From: Minisyncoccota bacterium
Lineage (GTDB): Bacteria > Patescibacteriota > Minisyncoccia > Minisyncoccales > Minisyncoccaceae
Reading direction: 5' to 3'
Assembly: GCA_028717005.1 (NCBI GenBank)
Contig: JAQUOQ010000001.1
Location: 1 to 34,151 of the forward strand
DNA: 34,151 bases
Position numbers and translations under genes: made by a program. The notes under the pieces are model-generated. The model had not been told where the DNA came from. It saw nothing but the letters and a program-made list of their open reading frames with translations, and made no database searches. Below, one piece after another: positions 6,232-28,002 of the stretch (its first letter is position 1; each line of letters begins with the position of its first letter).

Positions 6232-7332
6232 CTATGCGTCTTTAGCGCTTGCAGAGATATTAAGCAAAATTCCGCAAGCTATAAGTTCAAAAACCAAATG
6301 CGAGCTGCCATAAGTGATAAAAGGCAGCGGCGTGCCGGAGAGAGGCAACAGGCCGGTCATAGCGCCGATATTAACGAAAGCCTGTATGCTTATCCACGAA
6401 CCGATGCCTATGGCGACAAGCTTGCTGAAATTGTCGGTTACTTTCCGTGCCAGAAAAAATGCGGTTGCCGCGAAAACGACAAAAGCGGCGATAAGGAAAA
6501 AGCATCCGATAAATCCGGTCTCTTCCGCGTAAATGGCAAAAATGGAATCCGAGGTTGATTCCGGCAGGAATCCGAATTTTTGCGAACTGAACCCGAGCCC
6601 CGAACCGATAAGCCCGCCTGAACCGATAGCGATCAAGGCCTGTTTTAACTGGTAGCCGATGCCGAGAGGATCGGTAGCTGAATTTAAAAAGACGCTTATC
6701 CGTTTAAACCGATAAGGTTCTAACGCAAGAACGGCAAAGAGCAGCAATCCCGCCGCCCAAACTCCGATATTATAAATCCACGGCGTACTGGCGCAGAAAA
6801 AAACAATCCCTGCAACGGCTGATATGATAACAAGCGTGCTTAAATTTGATTGCAAAATCAGGGATACGGCGATAAGCGCCAGAGCAAAAAGAAAAGCAAC
6901 AAACTTTTTTTTATTCGGGCGGTTGCTGCTTAATATCGCGGCAAGATAAATTATTGTCGCCAATTTTAGAAACTCGGACGGCTGAAAGCTGAGATAGCCA
7001 AGATTAAGCCATCGCGTTGCCCCGCCTTCGGTTTTGGAGAACGCCGGAATAAATACGGCAACCATCAGGATAAAGGCGATAACAAAAATAATCAATCCTT
7101 TTTCTTTATAAAAGCGCAGGGGGATTTTAAAAGCGATAAAACCCAAAAGCAGGCCGGGCAAAAGGCCGTACAATACTTGGTGGAATAAATAATAGCTAGG
7201 GCTGGCGCCGGCTTTAATTGATGCCGGGGTTGTTGCCGTGGCAAGAGCCAGAAAACCCAAAAAAACCAGCACGGAAATGGCGATGGCGAGAGTGATATTG
7301 GGCCGTGTATTATTTTTTGCCCTGTTTGCCAT
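6232..7332 (-). CDS. ftsW: SEDS-family peptidoglycan polymerase / lipid II flippase
   Basis: 366 aa and polytopic. The FtsW/RodA-type C-terminal motifs LPESTSDSIF and GLLPLSGTPLPFITYGSS are present. I call it FtsW rather than RodA because it lies between murD and murG. Confidence 0.85.
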   Translation of the reverse strand: MANRAKNNTRPNITLAIAISVLVFLGFLALATATTPASIKAGASPSYYLFHQVLYGLLPGLLLGFIAFKIPLRFYKEKGLIIFVIAFILMVAVFIPAFSKTEGGATRWLNLGYLSFQPSEFLKLATIIYLAAILSSNRPNKKKFVAFLFALALIAVSLILQSNLSTLVIISAVAGIVFFCASTPWIYNIGVWAAGLLLFAVLALEPYRFKRISVFLNSATDPLGIGYQLKQALIAIGSGGLIGSGLGFSSQKFGFLPESTSDSIFAIYAEETGFIGCFFLIAAFVVFAATAFFLARKVTDNFSKLVAIGIGSWISIQAFVNIGAMTGLLPLSGTPLPFITYGSSHLVFELIACGILLNISASAKDA

Positions 7333-8671
7333 ACAAAATAACGTATTTTTTAAATTGTTCGCCCCGATCTTTATAATCCTTAAACAAGCCGAAACTCGGC
7401 GAAGCCGGGGATAAAAGGCAGATTCTACCCGGAGTTGTTTTCGCGAAAGCTGTTTTAACCGCTGATTCCATATCTTTCACGGAATATTTATTTAAGCGGC
7501 TTTTTTCTTTTTTATTTATTCCCTGCCAGATTTTATTTCCGGAAGCGGGAAATAATATCAGATTTTTAATGTTTTTATTCCTGGAAATTTCTTTTGAAAT
7601 TTTTTTAAAATCAATTCCCCTGTCCAAACCGCCGAGAATCATTGTCTCCACGCTTTCGCCGAGAGAATTCATGGCAAAAATGGCAGCCTCGGGTATAGTG
7701 GCTATGGAATCGTCATAGAACTTTATTTTTTTAAACTCTCCGACAAGCTCCAAACGGTGCGGCAGCTTTTTAAACGATTTAATCCCCCTGATAATCCGCT
7801 GTTCTGTTAATTTAAAAATTTTTCCGGCTTCTATTGCGGCTGTTAAATTATCCTCGTGCGTTATCTGCGCCAATTCCGGATTCTGCCCGAATAATTTTGA
7901 ATATTTTTTCGGCTCAATCGAAATCTTTTTTGATTTTGCTTTCCGCGCTAAATTTTTAATTTCTCTAAACTTCGGATTGAAAATAAAATAATCGCTTTTA
8001 CTCTGATACAAGGCAATATTTTCCTTCGCCTTAAAATATTCATTGAAATTCTTATAATAATCCAGATGTTCCGGATAAATATTCAAAAACACGGCTATAT
8101 GCGGGCTTGTCCTTAAAAACTGCAGCTGGTGCGAAGATAATTCATATACGATAACATCGGTTTTTTTTATTTTCAGGAGATGCGATAAGGACGGGTTCTC
8201 TATATTGCCAAGCAAATACGCGGAAAAGCCGTTCTTTTTAAGGATGGCGTAAATCAGGCTGGCGGTGGTGCTTTTGCCTTTGGTGCCGGTAATGCCGATT
8301 ATTTTTGCCGGACAATTATCAAAAAACAGCTCGGTCTGGCTTGTTAAAATTACTCCTTTCTTGAGATATTTTTTAATTTTTCCAAATTGTATACCGGGCG
8401 ATTTTACGACAATATCAAAATTTTTAAGAGATTTAAGATAGTTTTTCCCTCCATAATATTTAATGTAACTATCTTTGCCGAGCGATTTTTCGGTATTAAT
8501 ATCCAATTCGGAAACATCTTTCTCGTCGGCAATCGCAATAACTTTTTTAGGGAATAGTTTCCTCAAAAAATAAAAAGAATCCAGCCCTTCCCGGCCAATT
8601 CCAAGAATAACCAAATTCTTTTTTTCCAGCTCTTTTATCTTCATTAGGTATAATTTATCATATTTAAACAA
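7310..8671 (-). CDS. murD: UDP-N-acetylmuramoyl-L-alanine--glutamate ligase
   Basis: 453 aa with the Mur ligase P-loop GITGTKGKSTT and an N-terminal Rossmann-like segment LVILGIGREG, in dcw context. The true start may be the internal MKIKEL. Whether it adds D-Glu or L-Glu cannot be read from the sequence. Confidence 0.88.
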   Translation of the reverse strand: MFKYDKLYLMKIKELEKKNLVILGIGREGLDSFYFLRKLFPKKVIAIADEKDVSELDINTEKSLGKDSYIKYYGGKNYLKSLKNFDIVVKSPGIQFGKIKKYLKKGVILTSQTELFFDNCPAKIIGITGTKGKSTTASLIYAILKKNGFSAYLLGNIENPSLSHLLKIKKTDVIVYELSSHQLQFLRTSPHIAVFLNIYPEHLDYYKNFNEYFKAKENIALYQSKSDYFIFNPKFREIKNLARKAKSKKISIEPKKYSKLFGQNPELAQITHEDNLTAAIEAGKIFKLTEQRIIRGIKSFKKLPHRLELVGEFKKIKFYDDSIATIPEAAIFAMNSLGESVETMILGGLDRGIDFKKISKEISRNKNIKNLILFPASGNKIWQGINKKEKSRLNKYSVKDMESAVKTAFAKTTPGRICLLSPASPSFGLFKDYKDRGEQFKKYVILYGKQGKK

Positions 8672-8695
8672 TAAAAAAAAGACCTTTATTTATTT

Positions 8696-9397
8696 TTAAG
8701 AACTCGCGGTCTCTGTTTTTACGAGTTCTTTTTTAACTATTTTTACGATTTCCGGAATGGCGCTTGTAGCAGCTTTCTCGGGATTTCGAGGAATGAGATG
8801 ATGGTCGCAATCAACAACCCTGGCCGTACCGAATGGATCGGCCGATTCCCGCGAAACAGTGCTGTCCCGGGAGCCTACGATATAGTAGGCGTTTTTAGCC
8901 GGCAGTTCATTCAACACCTTCAGGAATTTACTTCCCTTAAGAAGTTGAAAGAAAACTGGCACATTGCATAACGGCCGGGTAGCAAGCAGCTCGACGACGG
9001 GCAACGCCACTATTCCAAATGGGCCGCCGAGAGTCCGGTAATCAATGCCATGGTTCGGTGCTGCGACAAGAATCAAATCCTTGTCGCTAATCTCGGAAAT
9101 CGTCCGGTGTAAATACCTGGCGATAACCCCACCGAGACTGTGTCCAACAAGAATGATCCGCGCGTTTGGATATTCGCGCCGGACATTATCATAAGCTTGG
9201 CGAATGACAATGGCGTATTCGTGGACTTTTTTGTGCGATCGGAATTTCGTAAACTTTCCGGTCGCGTCCAGGTATTCGGGTATTAAAACCTTAACGCCTG
9301 GTATGTTCTCAAGTTCTTTCCTCGCAAGGCTGAAATTTCTTGCCGCCTTGCTTTCCGACCATCCTTGGATGGCGATAACCACTATCTTTGGGTCCAA
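8696..9397 (-). CDS. Alpha/beta hydrolase (lipase/esterase-like) with an intact Ser-Asp-His triad
   Basis: 233 aa with the nucleophile elbow VGHSLGG, a candidate acid residue in GSRDSTV and a candidate His in DCDHHLIP. It has a TTG start preceded by GGAG at 9-nt spacing, and its own consensus promoter. Confidence 0.75.
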   Translation of the reverse strand: MDPKIVVIAIQGWSESKAARNFSLARKELENIPGVKVLIPEYLDATGKFTKFRSHKKVHEYAIVIRQAYDNVRREYPNARIILVGHSLGGVIARYLHRTISEISDKDLILVAAPNHGIDYRTLGGPFGIVALPVVELLATRPLCNVPVFFQLLKGSKFLKVLNELPAKNAYYIVGSRDSTVSRESADPFGTARVVDCDHHLIPRNPEKAATSAIPEIVKIVKKELVKTETASS

Positions 9398-9443
9398 TCA
9401 GTTCAACTCCTATAAGCCTTATGTAATTGTAAATGATAAGTTT

Positions 9444-9472
9444 ATTATAAACTATAATATATTATCTGTCAA
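9444..9472 (-). promoter_or_regulatory. Perfect sigma-70 consensus promoter (TTGACA-N17-TATAAT) for the hydrolase gene
   Basis: The minus strand reads TTGACA (9472-9467), then gataatatattatagtt (17 nt), then TATAAT (9449-9444). It lies about 45 nt upstream of the TTG start at 9397. Confidence 0.6.
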
Positions 9473-9505
9473 TATACCTTCTCCCCTACCCAAAGCTGTT
9501 ATTTA

Positions 9506-9532
9506 ATGTTTGGGGACTTTGTCCCCAAACAT
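9506..9532. repeat. REP-like hairpin, family ATGTTTGG...CCAAACAT (copy 1)
   Basis: ATGTTTGGGGAC ttt GTCCCCAAACAT forms a perfect 12-bp stem. It is intergenic, downstream of the 9599 ORF. Confidence 0.85.
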
Positions 9533-9598
9533 CTTAATTTCTCATTATTTCAATAATTTTTTCGCTTAAATAAAAAGAAGGAGAACCAATTGATCCTC

Positions 9599-9898
9599 CT
9601 ATAGTCTTCTAGGCGGTATGTCGCCTGTAATGGCTGCTATCTCGGCCTGACTGATGCCGTTCTCTGTCATTGCCTTGACGTAGCATTCTACTGTTTTCGA
9701 ATGATATTCCGGCATGGCGCCTACGAATGCGGCGAGGAAATCGCGGCCTTCTTGCGGCTTGTTCTGCTCTATTAATTGAGCAAAACAATTGCCGAGCATT
9801 TCGCTGAAGACTTTTTCCAGGCCTTGGCGTTCGTGGTCGTAGGTCAGCTGCTTGACTCTCGCCCGAATACTGCTTTGCACATCCTTCACGAATTTCAT
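9599..9898 (-). CDS. Orphan hypothetical protein. It is 99 aa from the ATG at 9898, but is probably about 174 aa from a non-canonical start near 10123.
   Basis: The frame stays open from 9599 up to 10156 with no in-frame ATG, GTG or TTG upstream of 9898. AGGAGG (10136-10131) lies 7 nt before an in-frame ATA (10123-10121), and a consensus promoter sits at 10169-10197. The C-terminus GISQAEIAAITG looks HTH-like. Confidence 0.6.
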   Translation of the reverse strand: MKFVKDVQSSIRARVKQLTYDHERQGLEKVFSEMLGNCFAQLIEQNKPQEGRDFLAAFVGAMPEYHSKTVECYVKAMTENGISQAEIAAITGDIPPRRL

Positions 9899-10168
9899 CG
9901 ACTGGCTGAAATCAGCATCACGCTTCTGGTAAAAATCGTCCAGGACGAGATGAACCAGATAAAGCGAAGCCTCTTCGATGAAAAAGCCTCGCAGGCCGAT
10001 TCTTTGGCACGGTTTGTACCGCTTGTCGTCGATGTGTTCAAGTGCCAGACCAATACCATCTACGCATCTTTGGCAGCGAATGCTTGCGCGGATGATTTCT
10101 TTTGCACGTTCTGTTCGTGGTATAACAATTCCTCCTGCGGTTTTAAATTTGAAAGATTACTGGTTATA

Positions 10169-10197
10169 ATTATAAAATTATATACAATAAATGTCAA
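10169..10197 (-). promoter_or_regulatory. Perfect sigma-70 consensus promoter (TTGACA-N17-TATAAT) for the orphan ORF
   Basis: The minus strand reads TTGACA (10197-10192), then tttattgtatataattt (17 nt), then TATAAT (10174-10169). AGGAGG follows about 33 nt downstream. Confidence 0.6.
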
Positions 10198-10250
10198 TAA
10201 TCTTATCCACCGACAATTAACTGCACTAACTGCCGCGCACCAGTAAAAAA

Positions 10251-10292
10251 ATGTTGGGGGGTCCGCCAGCTGGCGGATAGAAACTCAAACAT
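10251..10292. repeat. Degenerate or composite member of the ATGTTTGG hairpin family, containing the inner palindrome TCCGCCAG/CTGGCGGA
   Basis: The sequence is ATGTTGGGGGG TCCGCCAGCTGGCGGA tagaaactc AAACAT. The left arm resembles the other copies, the right arm is only AAACAT, and the same AAACATTGC tail is seen at copy 26459. On the minus strand the GC palindrome is followed by a T run. Confidence 0.55.
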
Positions 10293-10324
10293 TGCTTTTT
10301 AATCTATCGACCTTGCTTGCTCTA

Positions 10325-10361
10325 CGAAGTCTTGGCGAAGTTGGCACGAAATGGGCGAAGT
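10325..10361. promoter_or_regulatory. Four phased direct repeats of CGAAGT (one is CGAAAT) at 11, 11 and 9-nt spacing
   Basis: CGAAGT occurs at 10325, 10336 and 10356, and CGAAAT at 10347. Each is followed by a G-rich triplet (unit about GCGAAGTtGG). The site is intergenic, between the PP-loop gene stop and the orphan-gene promoter. Confidence 0.35.
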
Positions 10362-10406
10362 GGGATTGGTTCTTTATTCCTAATTCTTTATTCTTTATTC
10401 TCTATT

Positions 10407-11798
10407 TTATATGTCTTTCCGGAAATCGAACTTTTTCGGCAGATTATTTTTATTATCCCAATTGCCTAATATTTTTTCTGATTCTTTTTCCCAATTCCTT
10501 TCTTTTGGCATTATTTTTTCCTCAAAATATTTAAGCAGTTCCGGCTGCCCTAATCCTTTTAGCGCGTTTTTTTTCCAGCCAAGATACAGGGCGATTAAAG
10601 ATTCCTTTTTGGTGCCAACGCACTCCAAAGGCTTAATGTTTTTCTCGCCGATCAGTTCCAGCAAAAGCGGCAGCAAATTTTTATTAGCATACAAATCCGT
10701 GGCAAATATTTTTTTTAATTCACCGGCTTTCAGAAAAGGATACATCGCCATATAAACAAAAAGGCACTTGGCGCAGCTCTCGCACCATTTGCCTGTTTTT
10801 TTTGCCGTTCCGGAATAAGTTTTTTCCGCTTCGTTGCAGCTCAAAAAAATGGGAAAATAAATTGGACATTTCGAAAAAATCCTAGCAATTTGTAATTCAT
10901 ATAGCGGCCGCATCAGGCTAAAACAATCTATGCTTGAAGCGAGGTAACTATCAAGATATTCGCGGAACCGGTTTTCAAATTCAAAAGTTTTGCTGTATTG
11001 GTGGTTTATTTCCTCTTTCAGATAAATTACATTGCCCTCGTTGCTGCTTTTCTCGTTGGAAAAAACAACATATTTTTTGTTGAAAAGCGCGGCGACAAAA
11101 ACACTCAAGAACGACAGATATGCGACAAACGGCGTGTGGCCGTTCAAAAACCCTTGTCGGTTCAATTCCAGAAGCTTCGGGCTTATAACCCGCTCACAGA
11201 TAATTATCTCGCGGCAGCCGCTTACTTCCGCAATTTTTTTCGCCGATGGCGATGGATTTAATAAAAGGCAGGTGCTTTTTATCTTTTTTTCTTTAGTTAT
11301 CTGCAAAGACACGGCAGAATCTTTCCCGCCGCTAACCAAAACCAAAGCGGATTTTTTATCCAAAGCCACTCGCGCCGGCTTGAACTCGCTTTGTTTCTCG
11401 CTAGTGATGGAAATAAAATTCTTGGTCTTGAAATTAATTTTGTTTTCATAAAAATACTGGCCCATTCCGCTTATCAAGGTTTTTTCCCACCATTTTATCT
11501 GTGATTTATCCATTCCGCCGGCGAGAACAGTTATTTTCGGCGAACAAAAAGCCTTCCAATAACTCAGCATTTCCATCAACCCGAGATTAAAAACGAAATT
11601 TGAGATTACTTTTCCATCCAATTTTAACGCTGTTTTGGGCACGCTTTTAATAGTAACTGCCGGCGAAAAAGAATATCTGCCGCATTTAAAATAAAAATGA
11701 GCTTTTAAATCGCCCTTTTTAATTTCCCATTTATACGACTCGTAGATAAATTCCGGAAATTGCCGGCGCAATTGTTTTAATGTTTTTTTCGCGGCCAT
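10407..11798 (-). CDS. PP-loop (SGGxDS) ATP pyrophosphatase-family protein embedded in the dcw cluster; possible MurL-like enzyme
   Basis: 463 aa with the PP-loop LVLVSGGKDSAVS in the middle of the protein and the Cys motif CESCAKC. It starts 5 nt after the mraY stop. Confidence 0.7.
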   Translation of the reverse strand: MAAKKTLKQLRRQFPEFIYESYKWEIKKGDLKAHFYFKCGRYSFSPAVTIKSVPKTALKLDGKVISNFVFNLGLMEMLSYWKAFCSPKITVLAGGMDKSQIKWWEKTLISGMGQYFYENKINFKTKNFISITSEKQSEFKPARVALDKKSALVLVSGGKDSAVSLQITKEKKIKSTCLLLNPSPSAKKIAEVSGCREIIICERVISPKLLELNRQGFLNGHTPFVAYLSFLSVFVAALFNKKYVVFSNEKSSNEGNVIYLKEEINHQYSKTFEFENRFREYLDSYLASSIDCFSLMRPLYELQIARIFSKCPIYFPIFLSCNEAEKTYSGTAKKTGKWCESCAKCLFVYMAMYPFLKAGELKKIFATDLYANKNLLPLLLELIGEKNIKPLECVGTKKESLIALYLGWKKNALKGLGQPELLKYFEEKIMPKERNWEKESEKILGNWDNKNNLPKKFDFRKDI

Positions 11799-11803
11799 TG
11801 ATT

Positions 11804-12886
11804 TTAAGTTAAAAGTTTAATCGAAACGCCCAGAATGGCGAATATAATGCTTATAATCCAAAATCGCATTGTTATCTGCTGGGGCTGCCAGCCGATTGCC
11901 TCAAGATGATGGTGAATGGGTGTGGAAAGCCAGATTTTTTTGCCGGTGATTTTTTTCGATATAAGCTGAATAATTACCGAGCCGGTTTCAATCACCAAAA
12001 CTCCGGCAATAATCGGCAGAACAGCCACCGAATCGGTAAGAAAGGCAACCGCGGTCATGGTCATTGTCAGCCCGAGGATGCCGGTTTCGCCCATATAAAA
12101 TTTCGCGGGCGGAATATTAAACCACAGGAAGCTGAACAGCGCGCCCAATATTATAGCGCAAAAAGCAGCCATGTCCACGCTTCCCTGCGCAAAAGCGATA
12201 ATCGTGAAAGCGCCGAATATGGAACCGAACACTCCGCCGGCCAAACCATCCAACCCGTCCACAACCCCCGAAGACCAGGAAGCCAGGCTGACAACAACAT
12301 AAAGAAAAATATACCAAAGCCCTAAGGGCACGTCTATTCCTTCGGGAAAATTAAACAGCAGCGGAATTCTGATTGTGCTTAAACCCAACTTAAAATAAAG
12401 CCACAACCCCCCGATCAGCCCGATCAAAATAACCAGGATTAATCTGGTTCGGAATTTCAAACCTCCGCCAATATATTTACCCCTGCCGTAAACCACCAAA
12501 ATATCGTCAATTAATCCGATTATGGAGGCGGACACAAGCGCAAAAAGCGGTATCCATGTTTGTTCCCGCGAAAGAAAATTAAATTTTTTGAGCCACCAGA
12601 TATCGGTGAAATTGGAAAGAAGCAAACAAATGCCCAATAAAATAATAACTGTTGCCCAAATTACGATACCGCCCCCGCGGGGCACGGTCGTTTCTCTTTC
12701 CTTGTGCATGCTTAAAAATACCGAAGCTTCCCGCCCGTCAATTGTTTTCGCGCGGGCTTCTTTTTTCCAGAATTTTATGCGGTACAGAAATTTAATCAGG
12801 TATTTAGCGACAAAAAAGGAAATCAGCCAAGACAAAAAGGCTAAAATAAAAATTTTAATGATTCCGAAAGTTAAATTTGAAATCAT
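11804..12886 (-). CDS. mraY: Phospho-N-acetylmuramoyl-pentapeptide transferase
   Basis: 360 aa and polytopic, with the motifs GLIDDILVV and PIHHHLEAIGW (MraY HHH motif). Confidence 0.9.
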   Translation of the reverse strand: MISNLTFGIIKIFILAFLSWLISFFVAKYLIKFLYRIKFWKKEARAKTIDGREASVFLSMHKERETTVPRGGGIVIWATVIILLGICLLLSNFTDIWWLKKFNFLSREQTWIPLFALVSASIIGLIDDILVVYGRGKYIGGGLKFRTRLILVILIGLIGGLWLYFKLGLSTIRIPLLFNFPEGIDVPLGLWYIFLYVVVSLASWSSGVVDGLDGLAGGVFGSIFGAFTIIAFAQGSVDMAAFCAIILGALFSFLWFNIPPAKFYMGETGILGLTMTMTAVAFLTDSVAVLPIIAGVLVIETGSVIIQLISKKITGKKIWLSTPIHHHLEAIGWQPQQITMRFWIISIIFAILGVSIKLLT

Positions 12887-12895
12887 AGATAATAA

Positions 12896-13867
12896 TTACC
12901 AAACAAATGATTTTTCCACCCAGCTTTTTAATCTTGCGGCCTCTTCAAACCGGCCAGCCTTGCCTTCGGCTCCCATTATCACGGTAACCACATATTCCCT
13001 TTCCGCCAGGCCCGAAAACGGCGCTTTTGATATTAAGATAATACACCCGTTCGCCTCTTTTGTATATCCTGTTTTGCCCCAAATATAATCCCCGTCCTCT
13101 TCCAATAAAACATCCGTGCTTTTCATTTTGTGGTGGAATTTGCCCTGAACATATAAATCTTTTTCCTGTGTCGAGCAAATTTCGGCTATTAGCGGATAAT
13201 CTTTCATTATATATACGGCTATTTTTTTTAGGTCTTCGGGCGACGAAATATTTGTAAATCCGCTGCCAATATCAAGTCCGGTAGGATTGTAAAAACGCGT
13301 GTCGGTAAGCCCAAGGGCAACAGCCTTTTTATTCATTAAGTTGATAAATTTATCCCGGCCGGCTTTGCCCGCCAGCGCTTCAGCAGCGCTATTGCTTGAT
13401 TCTATAAGCATGCTGGAAAGCAAATCTTGAACAGTCCAATATTCGCCGGCGGAAAGATTGCCGGCAGTGCCGATTTCCGGATCTCTATCCAAATCTCCTG
13501 CGCTTATCACGATATTGTCGCTAAGTTCGTAATTTTCCATCGCTACAATAGCCGTCATCAATTTAGTAATCGAAGCTACCGGAGCAGAAAGGTTTTTTTG
13601 GTTTTGAAAAAGATACCTTTCCGTATTTTTGTCCAAATTTACGAAAACCGCGAGCGCTCGATCAGCACTGATCGCGGGAGGCAGGATATTTTTTTTCCCC
13701 AGCGGGCGAAACAGCCCGTTTTCCGAATATGCCAAAAACGAACCGGGATTTTTCCCGGCTTCAAATCCGCTTTTTCCCGCGAGGGCTGCCGGCGATAATA
13801 AAACTAAAACGGCCAGCACGGAAAAAAAAATCAAGTTGTTGTTCTTGCCCCTTTTTTTCTTTACCAT
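12896..13867 (-). CDS. Serine-type D-Ala-D-Ala carboxypeptidase (PBP5/S11-like)
   Basis: 323 aa with an N-terminal signal anchor and the motifs SxxK (SITK), SxN (SSN) and KTG (GKTGYT). Confidence 0.85.
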   Translation of the reverse strand: MVKKKRGKNNNLIFFSVLAVLVLLSPAALAGKSGFEAGKNPGSFLAYSENGLFRPLGKKNILPPAISADRALAVFVNLDKNTERYLFQNQKNLSAPVASITKLMTAIVAMENYELSDNIVISAGDLDRDPEIGTAGNLSAGEYWTVQDLLSSMLIESSNSAAEALAGKAGRDKFINLMNKKAVALGLTDTRFYNPTGLDIGSGFTNISSPEDLKKIAVYIMKDYPLIAEICSTQEKDLYVQGKFHHKMKSTDVLLEEDGDYIWGKTGYTKEANGCIILISKAPFSGLAEREYVVTVIMGAEGKAGRFEEAARLKSWVEKSFVW

Positions 13868-25779: not shown

Positions 25780-25806
25780 ATGTTTGGCAGCCAGGCTGCC
25801 AAACAT
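25780..25806. repeat. REP-like hairpin, family ATGTTTGG...CCAAACAT (copy 3)
   Basis: ATGTTTGGCAGCC a GGCTGCCAAACAT forms a perfect 13-bp stem, 27 nt upstream of the efp start. Confidence 0.85.
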
Positions 25807-26458: not shown

Positions 26459-26485
26459 ATGTTTGGGGACCTCGCTCCCAAACAT
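26459..26485. repeat. REP-like hairpin, family ATGTTTGG...CCAAACAT (copy 4)
   Basis: ATGTTTGGG gacctcgct CCCAAACAT has 9-bp outer arms. It lies immediately after the efp terminator and 13 nt from the stop of the convergent FTR-like gene. Confidence 0.8.
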
Positions 26486-27974: not shown

Positions 27975-28002
27975 ATGTTTGGGGGACGAAGTCCCCAAAC
28001 AT
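27975..28002. repeat. REP-like hairpin, family ATGTTTGG...CCAAACAT (copy 5)
   Basis: ATGTTTGGGGGAC gaa GTCCCCAAACAT forms a 12-bp stem with one bulged G. It fills almost the whole xseA-xseB spacer. Confidence 0.85.

Follow-up and report, generated by a model that had tools for sequence, protein, structure and literature searches.

Why should the division and cell wall (dcw) cluster, usually held among the most rigid of bacterial gene orders, be split by two genes that are not cell wall genes? The question is raised by positions 8696 to 10292 of a 34,151 nt stretch (here, the window) of contig JAQUOQ010000001.1 from a Minisyncoccota bacterium (assembly GCA_028717005.1), where a gene for a helical-repeat protein and one for a Ser-Asp-His alpha/beta-hydrolase lie between murL and murD. 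A reading of the letters alone had taken the two as a candidate accessory cassette, perhaps a hydrolase effector with a partner or regulator. The answer favored here is that the stretch is likely to be the filled state of a variable murL/murD slot found in many Paceibacteria (Patescibacteria, or candidate phyla radiation, CPR), placed at an operon boundary and holding two independent accessory genes. What carries it is observed directly: the anatomy of the locus, the solo recurrence of each gene, the varied cargo of the slot, its enrichment in promoters and a swap of cargo between near-identical genomes.

A variable slot between murL and murD

The slot in the window is made up as follows.

10407-11798, minus strand: murL (463 aa; NCBIfam NF041275), first called the 'PP-loop' gene; upstream border of the slot
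9599..10123, minus strand: helical-repeat protein gene, 174 aa (open frame; homologues P0017 and P0018), with its TAG stop at 9601-9599
8696..9397, minus strand: gene for a 233 aa alpha/beta-hydrolase without evident signal peptide, starting at TTG (Pfam, homologues, triad)
7310-8671, minus strand: murD (TIGR01087, E 2.6e-91); downstream border of the slot

Every gene between 5 and 15 kb of the window is on the minus strand, in the order S11 D-Ala-D-Ala carboxypeptidase, mraY, murL, helical gene, hydrolase, murD, ftsW, murG, gltX, so that two genes unrelated to the cell wall do separate the 'PP-loop' gene from murD, as had been claimed. The product of that 'PP-loop' gene gives a full-length match to the NCBIfam MurL model (E 8.7e-73; residues 16-455 on profile positions 9-437 of 447), its 245 bits being below the equivalog cut-off of 700 set for a Xanthomonadales model. 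Pfam MurL_N and MurL_epimerase_C are present in its orthologues and a MurD-type ligase adjoins it, with murD downstream in 71 loci; on these matches the gene at 10407-11798 is assigned as MurL. The arrangement mraY-murL-murD-ftsW extends across Paceibacteria, Parcubacteria and Minisyncoccales, with 568 tblastn-confirmed stretches in GTDB species genomes. MurL is thus widespread in Paceibacteria, beyond the taxa named in a 2021 review of the MurD2/MurL pathway, whose list is limited to some Gamma- and Alphaproteobacteria and to rare actinobacteria (PMC8788868). In the literature searched no description was found of MurL in Patescibacteria or of a variable dcw slot.

Synteny was compared from mraY to murD. 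From a scan of GTDB species genomes with a MurL profile, 80 of the 568 confirmed matches were surveyed as loci, mainly from Paceibacterota, Parcubacteria and Minisyncoccales and including the cultured Minisyncoccus archaeiphilus; pooled with loci fetched earlier they gave 71 non-redundant ones (L numbers below) in which murL is followed by murD on the same strand. Occupancy of the slot varies: the gap is no more than 162 nt in 34 of the 71, which are without cargo, and exceeds 250 nt in the 37 that are filled. What fills it elsewhere is diverse.

L011: DJ-1/PfpI
L020 6397-7662, L024 6399-7661 and L028 3033-4331: pilin-like proteins of ~420 aa with an N-terminal prepilin methylation motif (N_methyl)
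L036 and L040: phosphoglucose isomerase (PGI), on the opposite strand
L038 4764-5579: TFIIB-repeat protein, 271 aa (Pfam PF00382, E 1.7e-9), in the Parcubacteria metagenome-assembled genome (MAG) DG_74_3
L040: GH130 and GT1
L047 7586-8494: IS1595-family transposase, in a complete Nealsonbacteria genome
L078: Obg-like GTPase
L006: S-adenosylmethionine (SAM) methyltransferase
L013 and L035: divergent Ser-Asp-His hydrolases (hidden Markov model E about 1e-14 to 1e-15)
several loci: proteins without any match

The transposase in L047 means that mobile DNA, too, lands at the murL-murD junction. A TFIIB repeat is unexpected in a bacterium, and the pilin-like proteins sit in a clade that includes relatives of Minisyncoccus.

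L002 may be compared with L013. The murL and murD DNA flanks of these loci are 98% and 96% identical and their slot hydrolases only 29% identical: L002 (5887-7055) has a 236 aa GHSLGG hydrolase with a 108 aa membrane open reading frame (ORF), and L013 (6360-7072) a divergent hydrolase of 202 aa with YSMGN at the elbow. Such different cargo within near-identical flanks suggests replacement by recombination. In L026 and L084 the hydrolase copy is truncated, and the empty slot of L017 (about 6350-6385) looks like a deletion scar, with the -35 TTTGAC of its slot promoter joined directly to the GGGTCTTTTTTTT element by which a cargo gene is usually followed. That both window genes are accessory, as first supposed, is accordingly well borne out by the many close relatives without them, the decayed copies and the exchanged cargo. 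In a neighbor-joining tree of MraY, MurL and MurD the window is sister to L009, and the hydrolase is patchy in the neighboring clade; the window may either have kept both ancestral occupants or have gained one of them.

Promoters of the slot genes

Each of the two genes was said to have an exact TTGACA-N17-TATAAT promoter and a Shine-Dalgarno (SD) site, and so it has.

10197..10169, minus strand: perfect sigma-70-type promoter of the helical gene, TTGACA-N17-TATAAT, 12/12 consensus matches
10136-10131, minus strand: SD site AGGAGG of the helical gene, 7 nt before the ATA start
9472..9444, minus strand: perfect sigma-70-type promoter of the hydrolase gene, TTGACA-N17-TATAAT, 12/12 consensus matches
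9411-9407, minus strand: SD site AGGAG of the hydrolase gene, 9 nt before the TTG start

These are the only perfect sites of this kind on either strand of the window, for which composition-preserving shuffles in 100 nt blocks give a mean of 0.046 and a probability of 0.001 for two or more. In the 71 loci the slots, 45.8 kb in all, hold 13 perfect promoters and 29 with no more than one mismatch; the corresponding figures for the same strand outside the slots (700 kb) are 1 and 36, and both strands of 877 kb have 17 perfect ones in total. By these counts the predicted promoters of the window are far beyond chance, and they are conserved. It is because relatives keep them that both are judged real and probably strong, which fits the earlier picture of autonomous, strongly promoted genes, and with consensus promoters of this quality the slot genes would be highly expressed.

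Base composition is less informative. The G+C content (GC) of both slot genes is ~49%, the highest of 20 genes compared (window mean 40.7%), and their codon-usage scores are the lowest of the 20; at third codon positions (GC3) their values of 0.52-0.53 are inside the range of the other window genes. An earlier view that GC was not clearly different here has thus to be amended for total GC and stands for GC3 and for its corollary, that composition and codon usage are not decisive and leave the origin of the genes unsettled.

The hydrolase

The 14 homologues found for the hydrolase are 44-54% identical to it, and those with names are from Candidatus Pacebacteria. Across all 14, S87 (in GHSLGG, residues 85-90), D178 and H199 are invariant, a G-x-S-x-G nucleophile elbow and Ser-Asp-His order that uphold the catalytic triad proposed from the letters alone. 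Classification beyond this is modest: 12 alpha/beta-hydrolase and lipase families of Pfam score, all just below cut-off, the best being Hydrolase_4 (24.8 bits, cut-off 27), with Abhydrolase_6 at 25.2 (cut-off 26.3), and NCBIfam matches are far below theirs. With every score short of its curated cut-off, membership of the superfamily is likely and no subfamily can be assigned. Profile matches in the PDB are weak and confined to the surroundings of the nucleophile, with monoglyceride lipases best (E 2e-4), and viral contigs gave only generic matches to the GHSLGG region. Our best guess is a cytoplasmic esterase or lipase that would act on a small ester or lipid substrate.

Wherever context could be read, the hydrolase gene lies between murL and murD (L001, L002/3, L004/5, L006, L007, L100 and L101), and in none of these loci, from at least seven lineages, is the helical gene present. 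In L006 a methyltransferase gene with its own near-consensus promoter stands where the window has the helical gene. Among the homologues found, the family is restricted to Paceibacteria and within them to this slot. TTGACA-N17-TATAAT or TATAGT precedes the gene in L001, L002, L004, L006, L007, L100 and L101 and the decayed copy of L084; in relatives it is a few tens of nt after the murL stop and often preceded by a GGGTGGGGA-type motif. The window has a counterpart.

9481..9491, minus strand: G-rich motif GGGTAGGGGAG, whose equivalent in relatives is directly after the murL stop

Since that equivalent follows murL directly, GGGTAGGGGAG marks the ancestral 5' edge of the hydrolase unit.

The helical-repeat protein

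The upstream gene had been called an orphan. A word-seeded search of a 5.8-billion-protein database with its product found nothing, and it took exhaustive HMMER against 1.8 billion representatives to recover two distant homologues, the full-length P0017 and P0018 (38% identity), which make that label wrong. The same search returned P0016, the 93 aa C-terminal fragment from GTG 9880 to which the database gene call for the window contig reduces the gene, and a marginal repeat protein, P0019. The last (752 aa) was set aside, its match being weak (E 5.6e-5) and limited to only ~40 last residues of the helical protein; it consists of tandem repeats of roughly 30-40 aa with the consensus ...HHQVV.AYLKAVNESGLSP.EKVALFKAE.... 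A profile search and a metagenome scan with the family brought no lineage beyond the three known, and no relative was seen in the viral contigs and plasmids searched.

In all three lineages the gene directly follows murL. It is the sole occupant of the murL-murD gap in L009/L010/L092 and in L034/L008/L091, and from ATTGACA through TATAACCAG the promoter core of the window gene is nearly identical to that of its L009 orthologue. The start is placed at ATA 10123 because this codon aligns with the ATG of P0017/L034: P0017 begins MPNTEHAKE where the window reads (ATA)-PRTERAKE, and AGGAGG, 8 nt and ATG CCA in L034 correspond to AGGAGG, 7 nt and ATA CCA in the window. ATA is able to initiate at low efficiency. 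The codon could be such a start, could have arisen from ATG by a recent change, or could be a base error, and the protein may be poorly translated in this genome. Two other frames were considered and rejected. That of 54 aa at 10059..9895 is not the gene, as only frame 0 of the minus strand is both fully open and common to the homologues; the antisense ORF of 156 aa (9776..10246, plus strand) mirrors the coding frame, has a similar codon score, shows 2 stops in the mirrored frame across the span of the gene and is not a gene itself. The gene ends in what resembles an intrinsic terminator.

9570..9600, minus strand: terminator-like hairpin (9600-9579) and U-tract at the end of the helical gene, -11.5 kcal/mol, z = -3.1

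For the protein itself a confident AlphaFold2 (AF2) model from the three-sequence alignment has eight helices, with a predicted local distance difference test score (pLDDT) of 85.6 and a predicted template modeling score (pTM) of 0.83. Foldseek, proposed earlier for both proteins, was run with this model of the helical one, and against the PDB it gave no match below E 0.04, designed helical repeats and ARM/TPR proteins appearing at E of 0.05 and above. A single-sequence AF2 model was poor (pLDDT 57) and its Foldseek matches were noise. Pfam, NCBIfam and PHROGs held nothing credible; a PADLOC match to Csm2 (E 1.8e-4, 20 bits), by one of three family members, is taken as chance similarity between helical proteins. 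The best guess is a protein-binding scaffold.

A probable operon boundary before murD

Upstream of the slot the neighboring genes are

12896-13867, minus strand: S11 D-Ala-D-Ala carboxypeptidase
11804-12886, minus strand: mraY

and the packing of the dcw genes around the slot is as tight as first described, neighbors abutting or overlapping with gaps of 9, 5, -23 and -4 nt. Between the cargo and murD there are two short elements.

8673..8684, minus strand: GGTC-T8 element past the slot cargo, probably either the tail of a terminator or part of the murD promoter, as its upstream element
8652..8660, minus strand: TGATAAATT, a motif resembling an extended -10, 7 nt ahead of the ATG at which murD probably starts

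GGTC-T8 is found irrespective of cargo (the window, L001, L002, L007, L013, L016, L017, L022, L026 and L035, with one-base variants in L004 and L084). TGnTAAATT is conserved in 19 of the 71 loci, at a distance of 7-8 nt from the murD ATG in 16, and the two elements, both shared by the clade of the window, occur even in the empty slots of L012 and L017. As TGnTAAATT is out of frame in L009 and L034 it is an element at the level of DNA. The ORF listing starts murD at TTG 8671; the real start is probably ATG 8644. No Shine-Dalgarno site precedes the ATG at 8644-8642, for which reason murD may be leaderless, and TGnTAAATT is read as a putative promoter for murD-ftsW-murG, possibly giving a leaderless mRNA. 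With its own conserved element ahead of murD, the junction looks like an operon boundary.

Hairpins and spacer

The orphan, as it then was, had been described as bracketed by two hairpins of one family. One of the pair holds up; the other is doubtful.

9506..9532: repetitive extragenic palindrome (REP)-like palindrome ATGTTTGGGGAC-N3-GTCCCCAAACAT, a clean family member, z = -6.7
10251..10292: degenerate palindrome, a doubtful or decayed ATGTTTGG..CCAAACAT member with an inner CCGCCAGCTGGCGG palindrome, z = -1.5
25780-25806, 26459-26485 and 27975-28002: other clean copies, in unrelated intergenic regions
10293..10406, minus strand: 114 nt spacer that follows the murL stop, at first A-rich, with three repeats of CTTCG(C/T) type further on, ACTTCGCCCA, ACTTCGCCAA and GACTTCGTAG

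The element at 10251-10292 retains the ATGTT...AACAT arms, but of 200 shuffled versions 16 fold equally well. The clean family has four copies in the window (z from -4.0 to -6.7), all intergenic, with outer arms ATGTTTGG/CCAAACAT that are conserved and GC-rich inner stems that covary, and no palindrome of this kind occurs in 906 kb of related loci. The element at 9506-9532 thus belongs to a family with the several intergenic copies, conserved arms and stable stem-loop of REP-like sequences, and by these features the palindromes are genome-specific REP-like elements, not cassette boundaries. The copy at 26459 comes after a separate terminator-like hairpin. The spacer 10293-10406 is specific to the window: in the sister locus L009, which is without it, 41 nt separate the murL match from the start of the promoter, and in the window 213 nt. 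Rfam gave no match over 8500-10600, the spacer included.

Weighing the explanations

If the slot reading is right, transcription of penicillin-binding protein (PBP)-mraY-murL would end at the junction and murD-ftsW-murG would have its own promoter-like element, and at such a boundary genes could therefore be gained, lost and exchanged without breaking expression of the cell wall genes. One unit would be the helical gene, inherited within a small clade and equipped with its own perfect promoter, AGGAGG SD, ATA start and terminator; the other would be the serine alpha/beta-hydrolase, esterase- or lipase-like, apparently cytoplasmic and likewise served by a perfect promoter and an SD of its own. 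Turnover would presumably go through homologous recombination, for which murL and murD supply conserved flanks. Several considerations weigh against this. The promoters, the terminators and the leaderless start of murD are sequence predictions; the survey drew on draft MAGs and at most 5 kb of flank, with genes called by simple ORF and tblastn rules; and the hydrolase tree fits vertical descent with repeated loss as well as it does ancient transfer. The position and promoter of the helical gene are kept across lineages whose MurL proteins are only 61% identical, and this, with the invariant triad of the hydrolase, points to selected functions, perhaps tied to synthesis of the cell wall. One proposal assigns both proteins to the making of peptidoglycan precursors, as accessory factors dedicated to its MurD2/MurL branch, their position being functional: the hydrolase could, for example, hydrolyze or proofread adenylated or cyclized UDP-MurNAc-dipeptide and the helical protein scaffold the Mur enzymes. 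It would account for each gene being always between murL and murD and for the conserved position, promoters and catalytic residues, and the published MurL mechanism does involve adenylation followed by epimerization and hydrolysis (PMC8788868). Yet the slot is empty in about half of the MurL-MurD loci, other slots hold unrelated DJ-1, pilin-like, PGI, transposase and methyltransferase genes, the hydrolase is truncated in two loci and, between two near-identical genomes, has given way to a paralogue of 29% identity, and Xanthomonas MurL is active in vitro without a partner of this sort (PMC8788868). We regard it as quite unlikely. Also not likely, though it has something of a chance, is that the junction is a dedicated expression platform, in which a consensus promoter after murL and the GGTC-T8/TGnTAAATT elements would frame a slot for fast-evolving genes swapped by recombination (diversified serine hydrolases, helical-repeat and pilin-like proteins), as a strongly expressed contingency locus for host interaction or the cell envelope in episymbionts of minimal genome; a stronger version would give the hydrolase and the helical protein a direct part in the MurD2/MurL pathway.

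The cassette with which the inquiry began, an effector with a partner, immunity protein or regulator, draws on the two genes being adjacent on one strand with a common GC (~49%) and promoter architecture in the window. The window is the only place where they co-occur; elsewhere each is found alone at the site, the hydrolase in at least seven lineages and the helical gene in two of its three. Between them are a terminator-like hairpin and a separate perfect promoter, which on sequence evidence tell against co-transcription or translational coupling, and PADLOC has no credible defense-system match, so that a single functional cassette, one of toxin/antitoxin type included, is now highly improbable. 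Could the helical unit (about 10406-9495) instead have been inserted recently, as mobile or foreign DNA with the two hairpins for boundaries? Palindromes near both ends, a GC of 49% where the window averages 41%, a codon-usage score lower than any other in the window and an extra spacer of 170 nt absent in L009 would suit such an origin. Against it, orthologues with the corresponding promoter and position exist in L034 and the sister lineage L009, the fold of the upstream 'hairpin' is not significant, the clean palindromes recur in unrelated intergenic regions and are missing from relatives, the viral contigs and plasmids are without a relative of the family, and no recombinase was seen among the ORFs between mraY and murG; a recent foreign insert is very unlikely. 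Conservation at this position across the lineage with clear housekeeping annotations, named earlier as telling against the cassette idea, is seen only in part: each gene does recur there, but in a subset of lineages and without any housekeeping annotation. A narrower doubt concerns the helical gene itself, which might be dead or dying here if ATG to ATA had abolished efficient initiation while promoter and frame remain for now. In its open frame, 10156..9599, no ATG, GTG or TTG comes ahead of codon 87, leaving 86 codons without one, the ATA takes the place of the L034 ATG, and the database call keeps only the C-terminal fragment; but none of the 174 codons is damaged, promoter, SD, SD spacing and terminator are without flaw, and low-efficiency initiation at ATA, a single-base assembly error or a population variant are all possible. 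That the gene is dying is doubtful, with a real chance of being so.

It is the reading as a variable slot that gives the locus its wider meaning. In a large class of the CPR the dcw cluster has a slot where its order is repeatedly broken and genes are exchanged, the occupants having what are predicted to be the strongest promoters of their neighborhoods, and the slot offers a defined, comparable locus for following accessory-gene gain and loss in symbionts of reduced genome. While the locus reveals no new two-gene system, it does flag two uncharacterized and probably highly expressed families, a slot-restricted serine hydrolase and a helical-repeat protein without known fold relative.

Comparison with known systems

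As in the MurD2/MurL pathway of Xanthomonas (Feng et al. 2017; PMC8788868), a MurL homologue adjoins a MurD-type ligase, a likeness in gene neighborhood; unlike there, the pair is embedded as mraY-murL-murD-ftsW in Paceibacteria. The hydrolase resembles small bacterial lipases and esterases (Lipase_2, Hydrolase_4, Abhydrolase_6, PGAP1-like; monoglyceride lipases in the PDB) in its GHSLGG elbow, Ser-Asp-His order, length of about 230 aa, lack of a lid-sized insertion and best sequence matches, and differs in being below all Pfam cut-offs, in PDB matches limited to the nucleophile region and in its restriction to a Paceibacteria slot. The palindromes are like REP elements in being short, GC-cored, intergenic, multi-copy and genome-specific, with conserved outer arms and covarying inner stems; they are unlike them in that no REP-associated tyrosine transposase (RAYT) was identified and in a sequence unrelated to enterobacterial REPs, their copy number being that of the 34 kb window alone.

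Integron cassettes come to mind with small single-gene units in one orientation at a fixed site and palindromes nearby. An integron gene cassette was nevertheless rejected: each slot gene has its own promoter, a consensus one for both window ORFs, and its own terminator, the window palindromes are perfect REP-like hairpins rather than attC sites, lie also at unrelated intergenic sites and are missing from the slots of relatives, and there is no integrase nearby (this holds for the vicinity, the whole window not having been scanned for one, and attC sites were not modeled).

Chromosomal hot spots of integration, flexible slots with conserved core genes on either side, are known from comparative bacterial genomics, and the murL-murD junction is like them in its conserved flanks, its presence/absence polymorphism, its unrelated cargo and the swaps between near-identical genomes. 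It departs from them in having neither integrase nor tRNA, in being inside the normally rigid dcw cluster and in a cargo that is usually one small gene and very often has a perfect consensus promoter, within about 70 nt of the murL stop.

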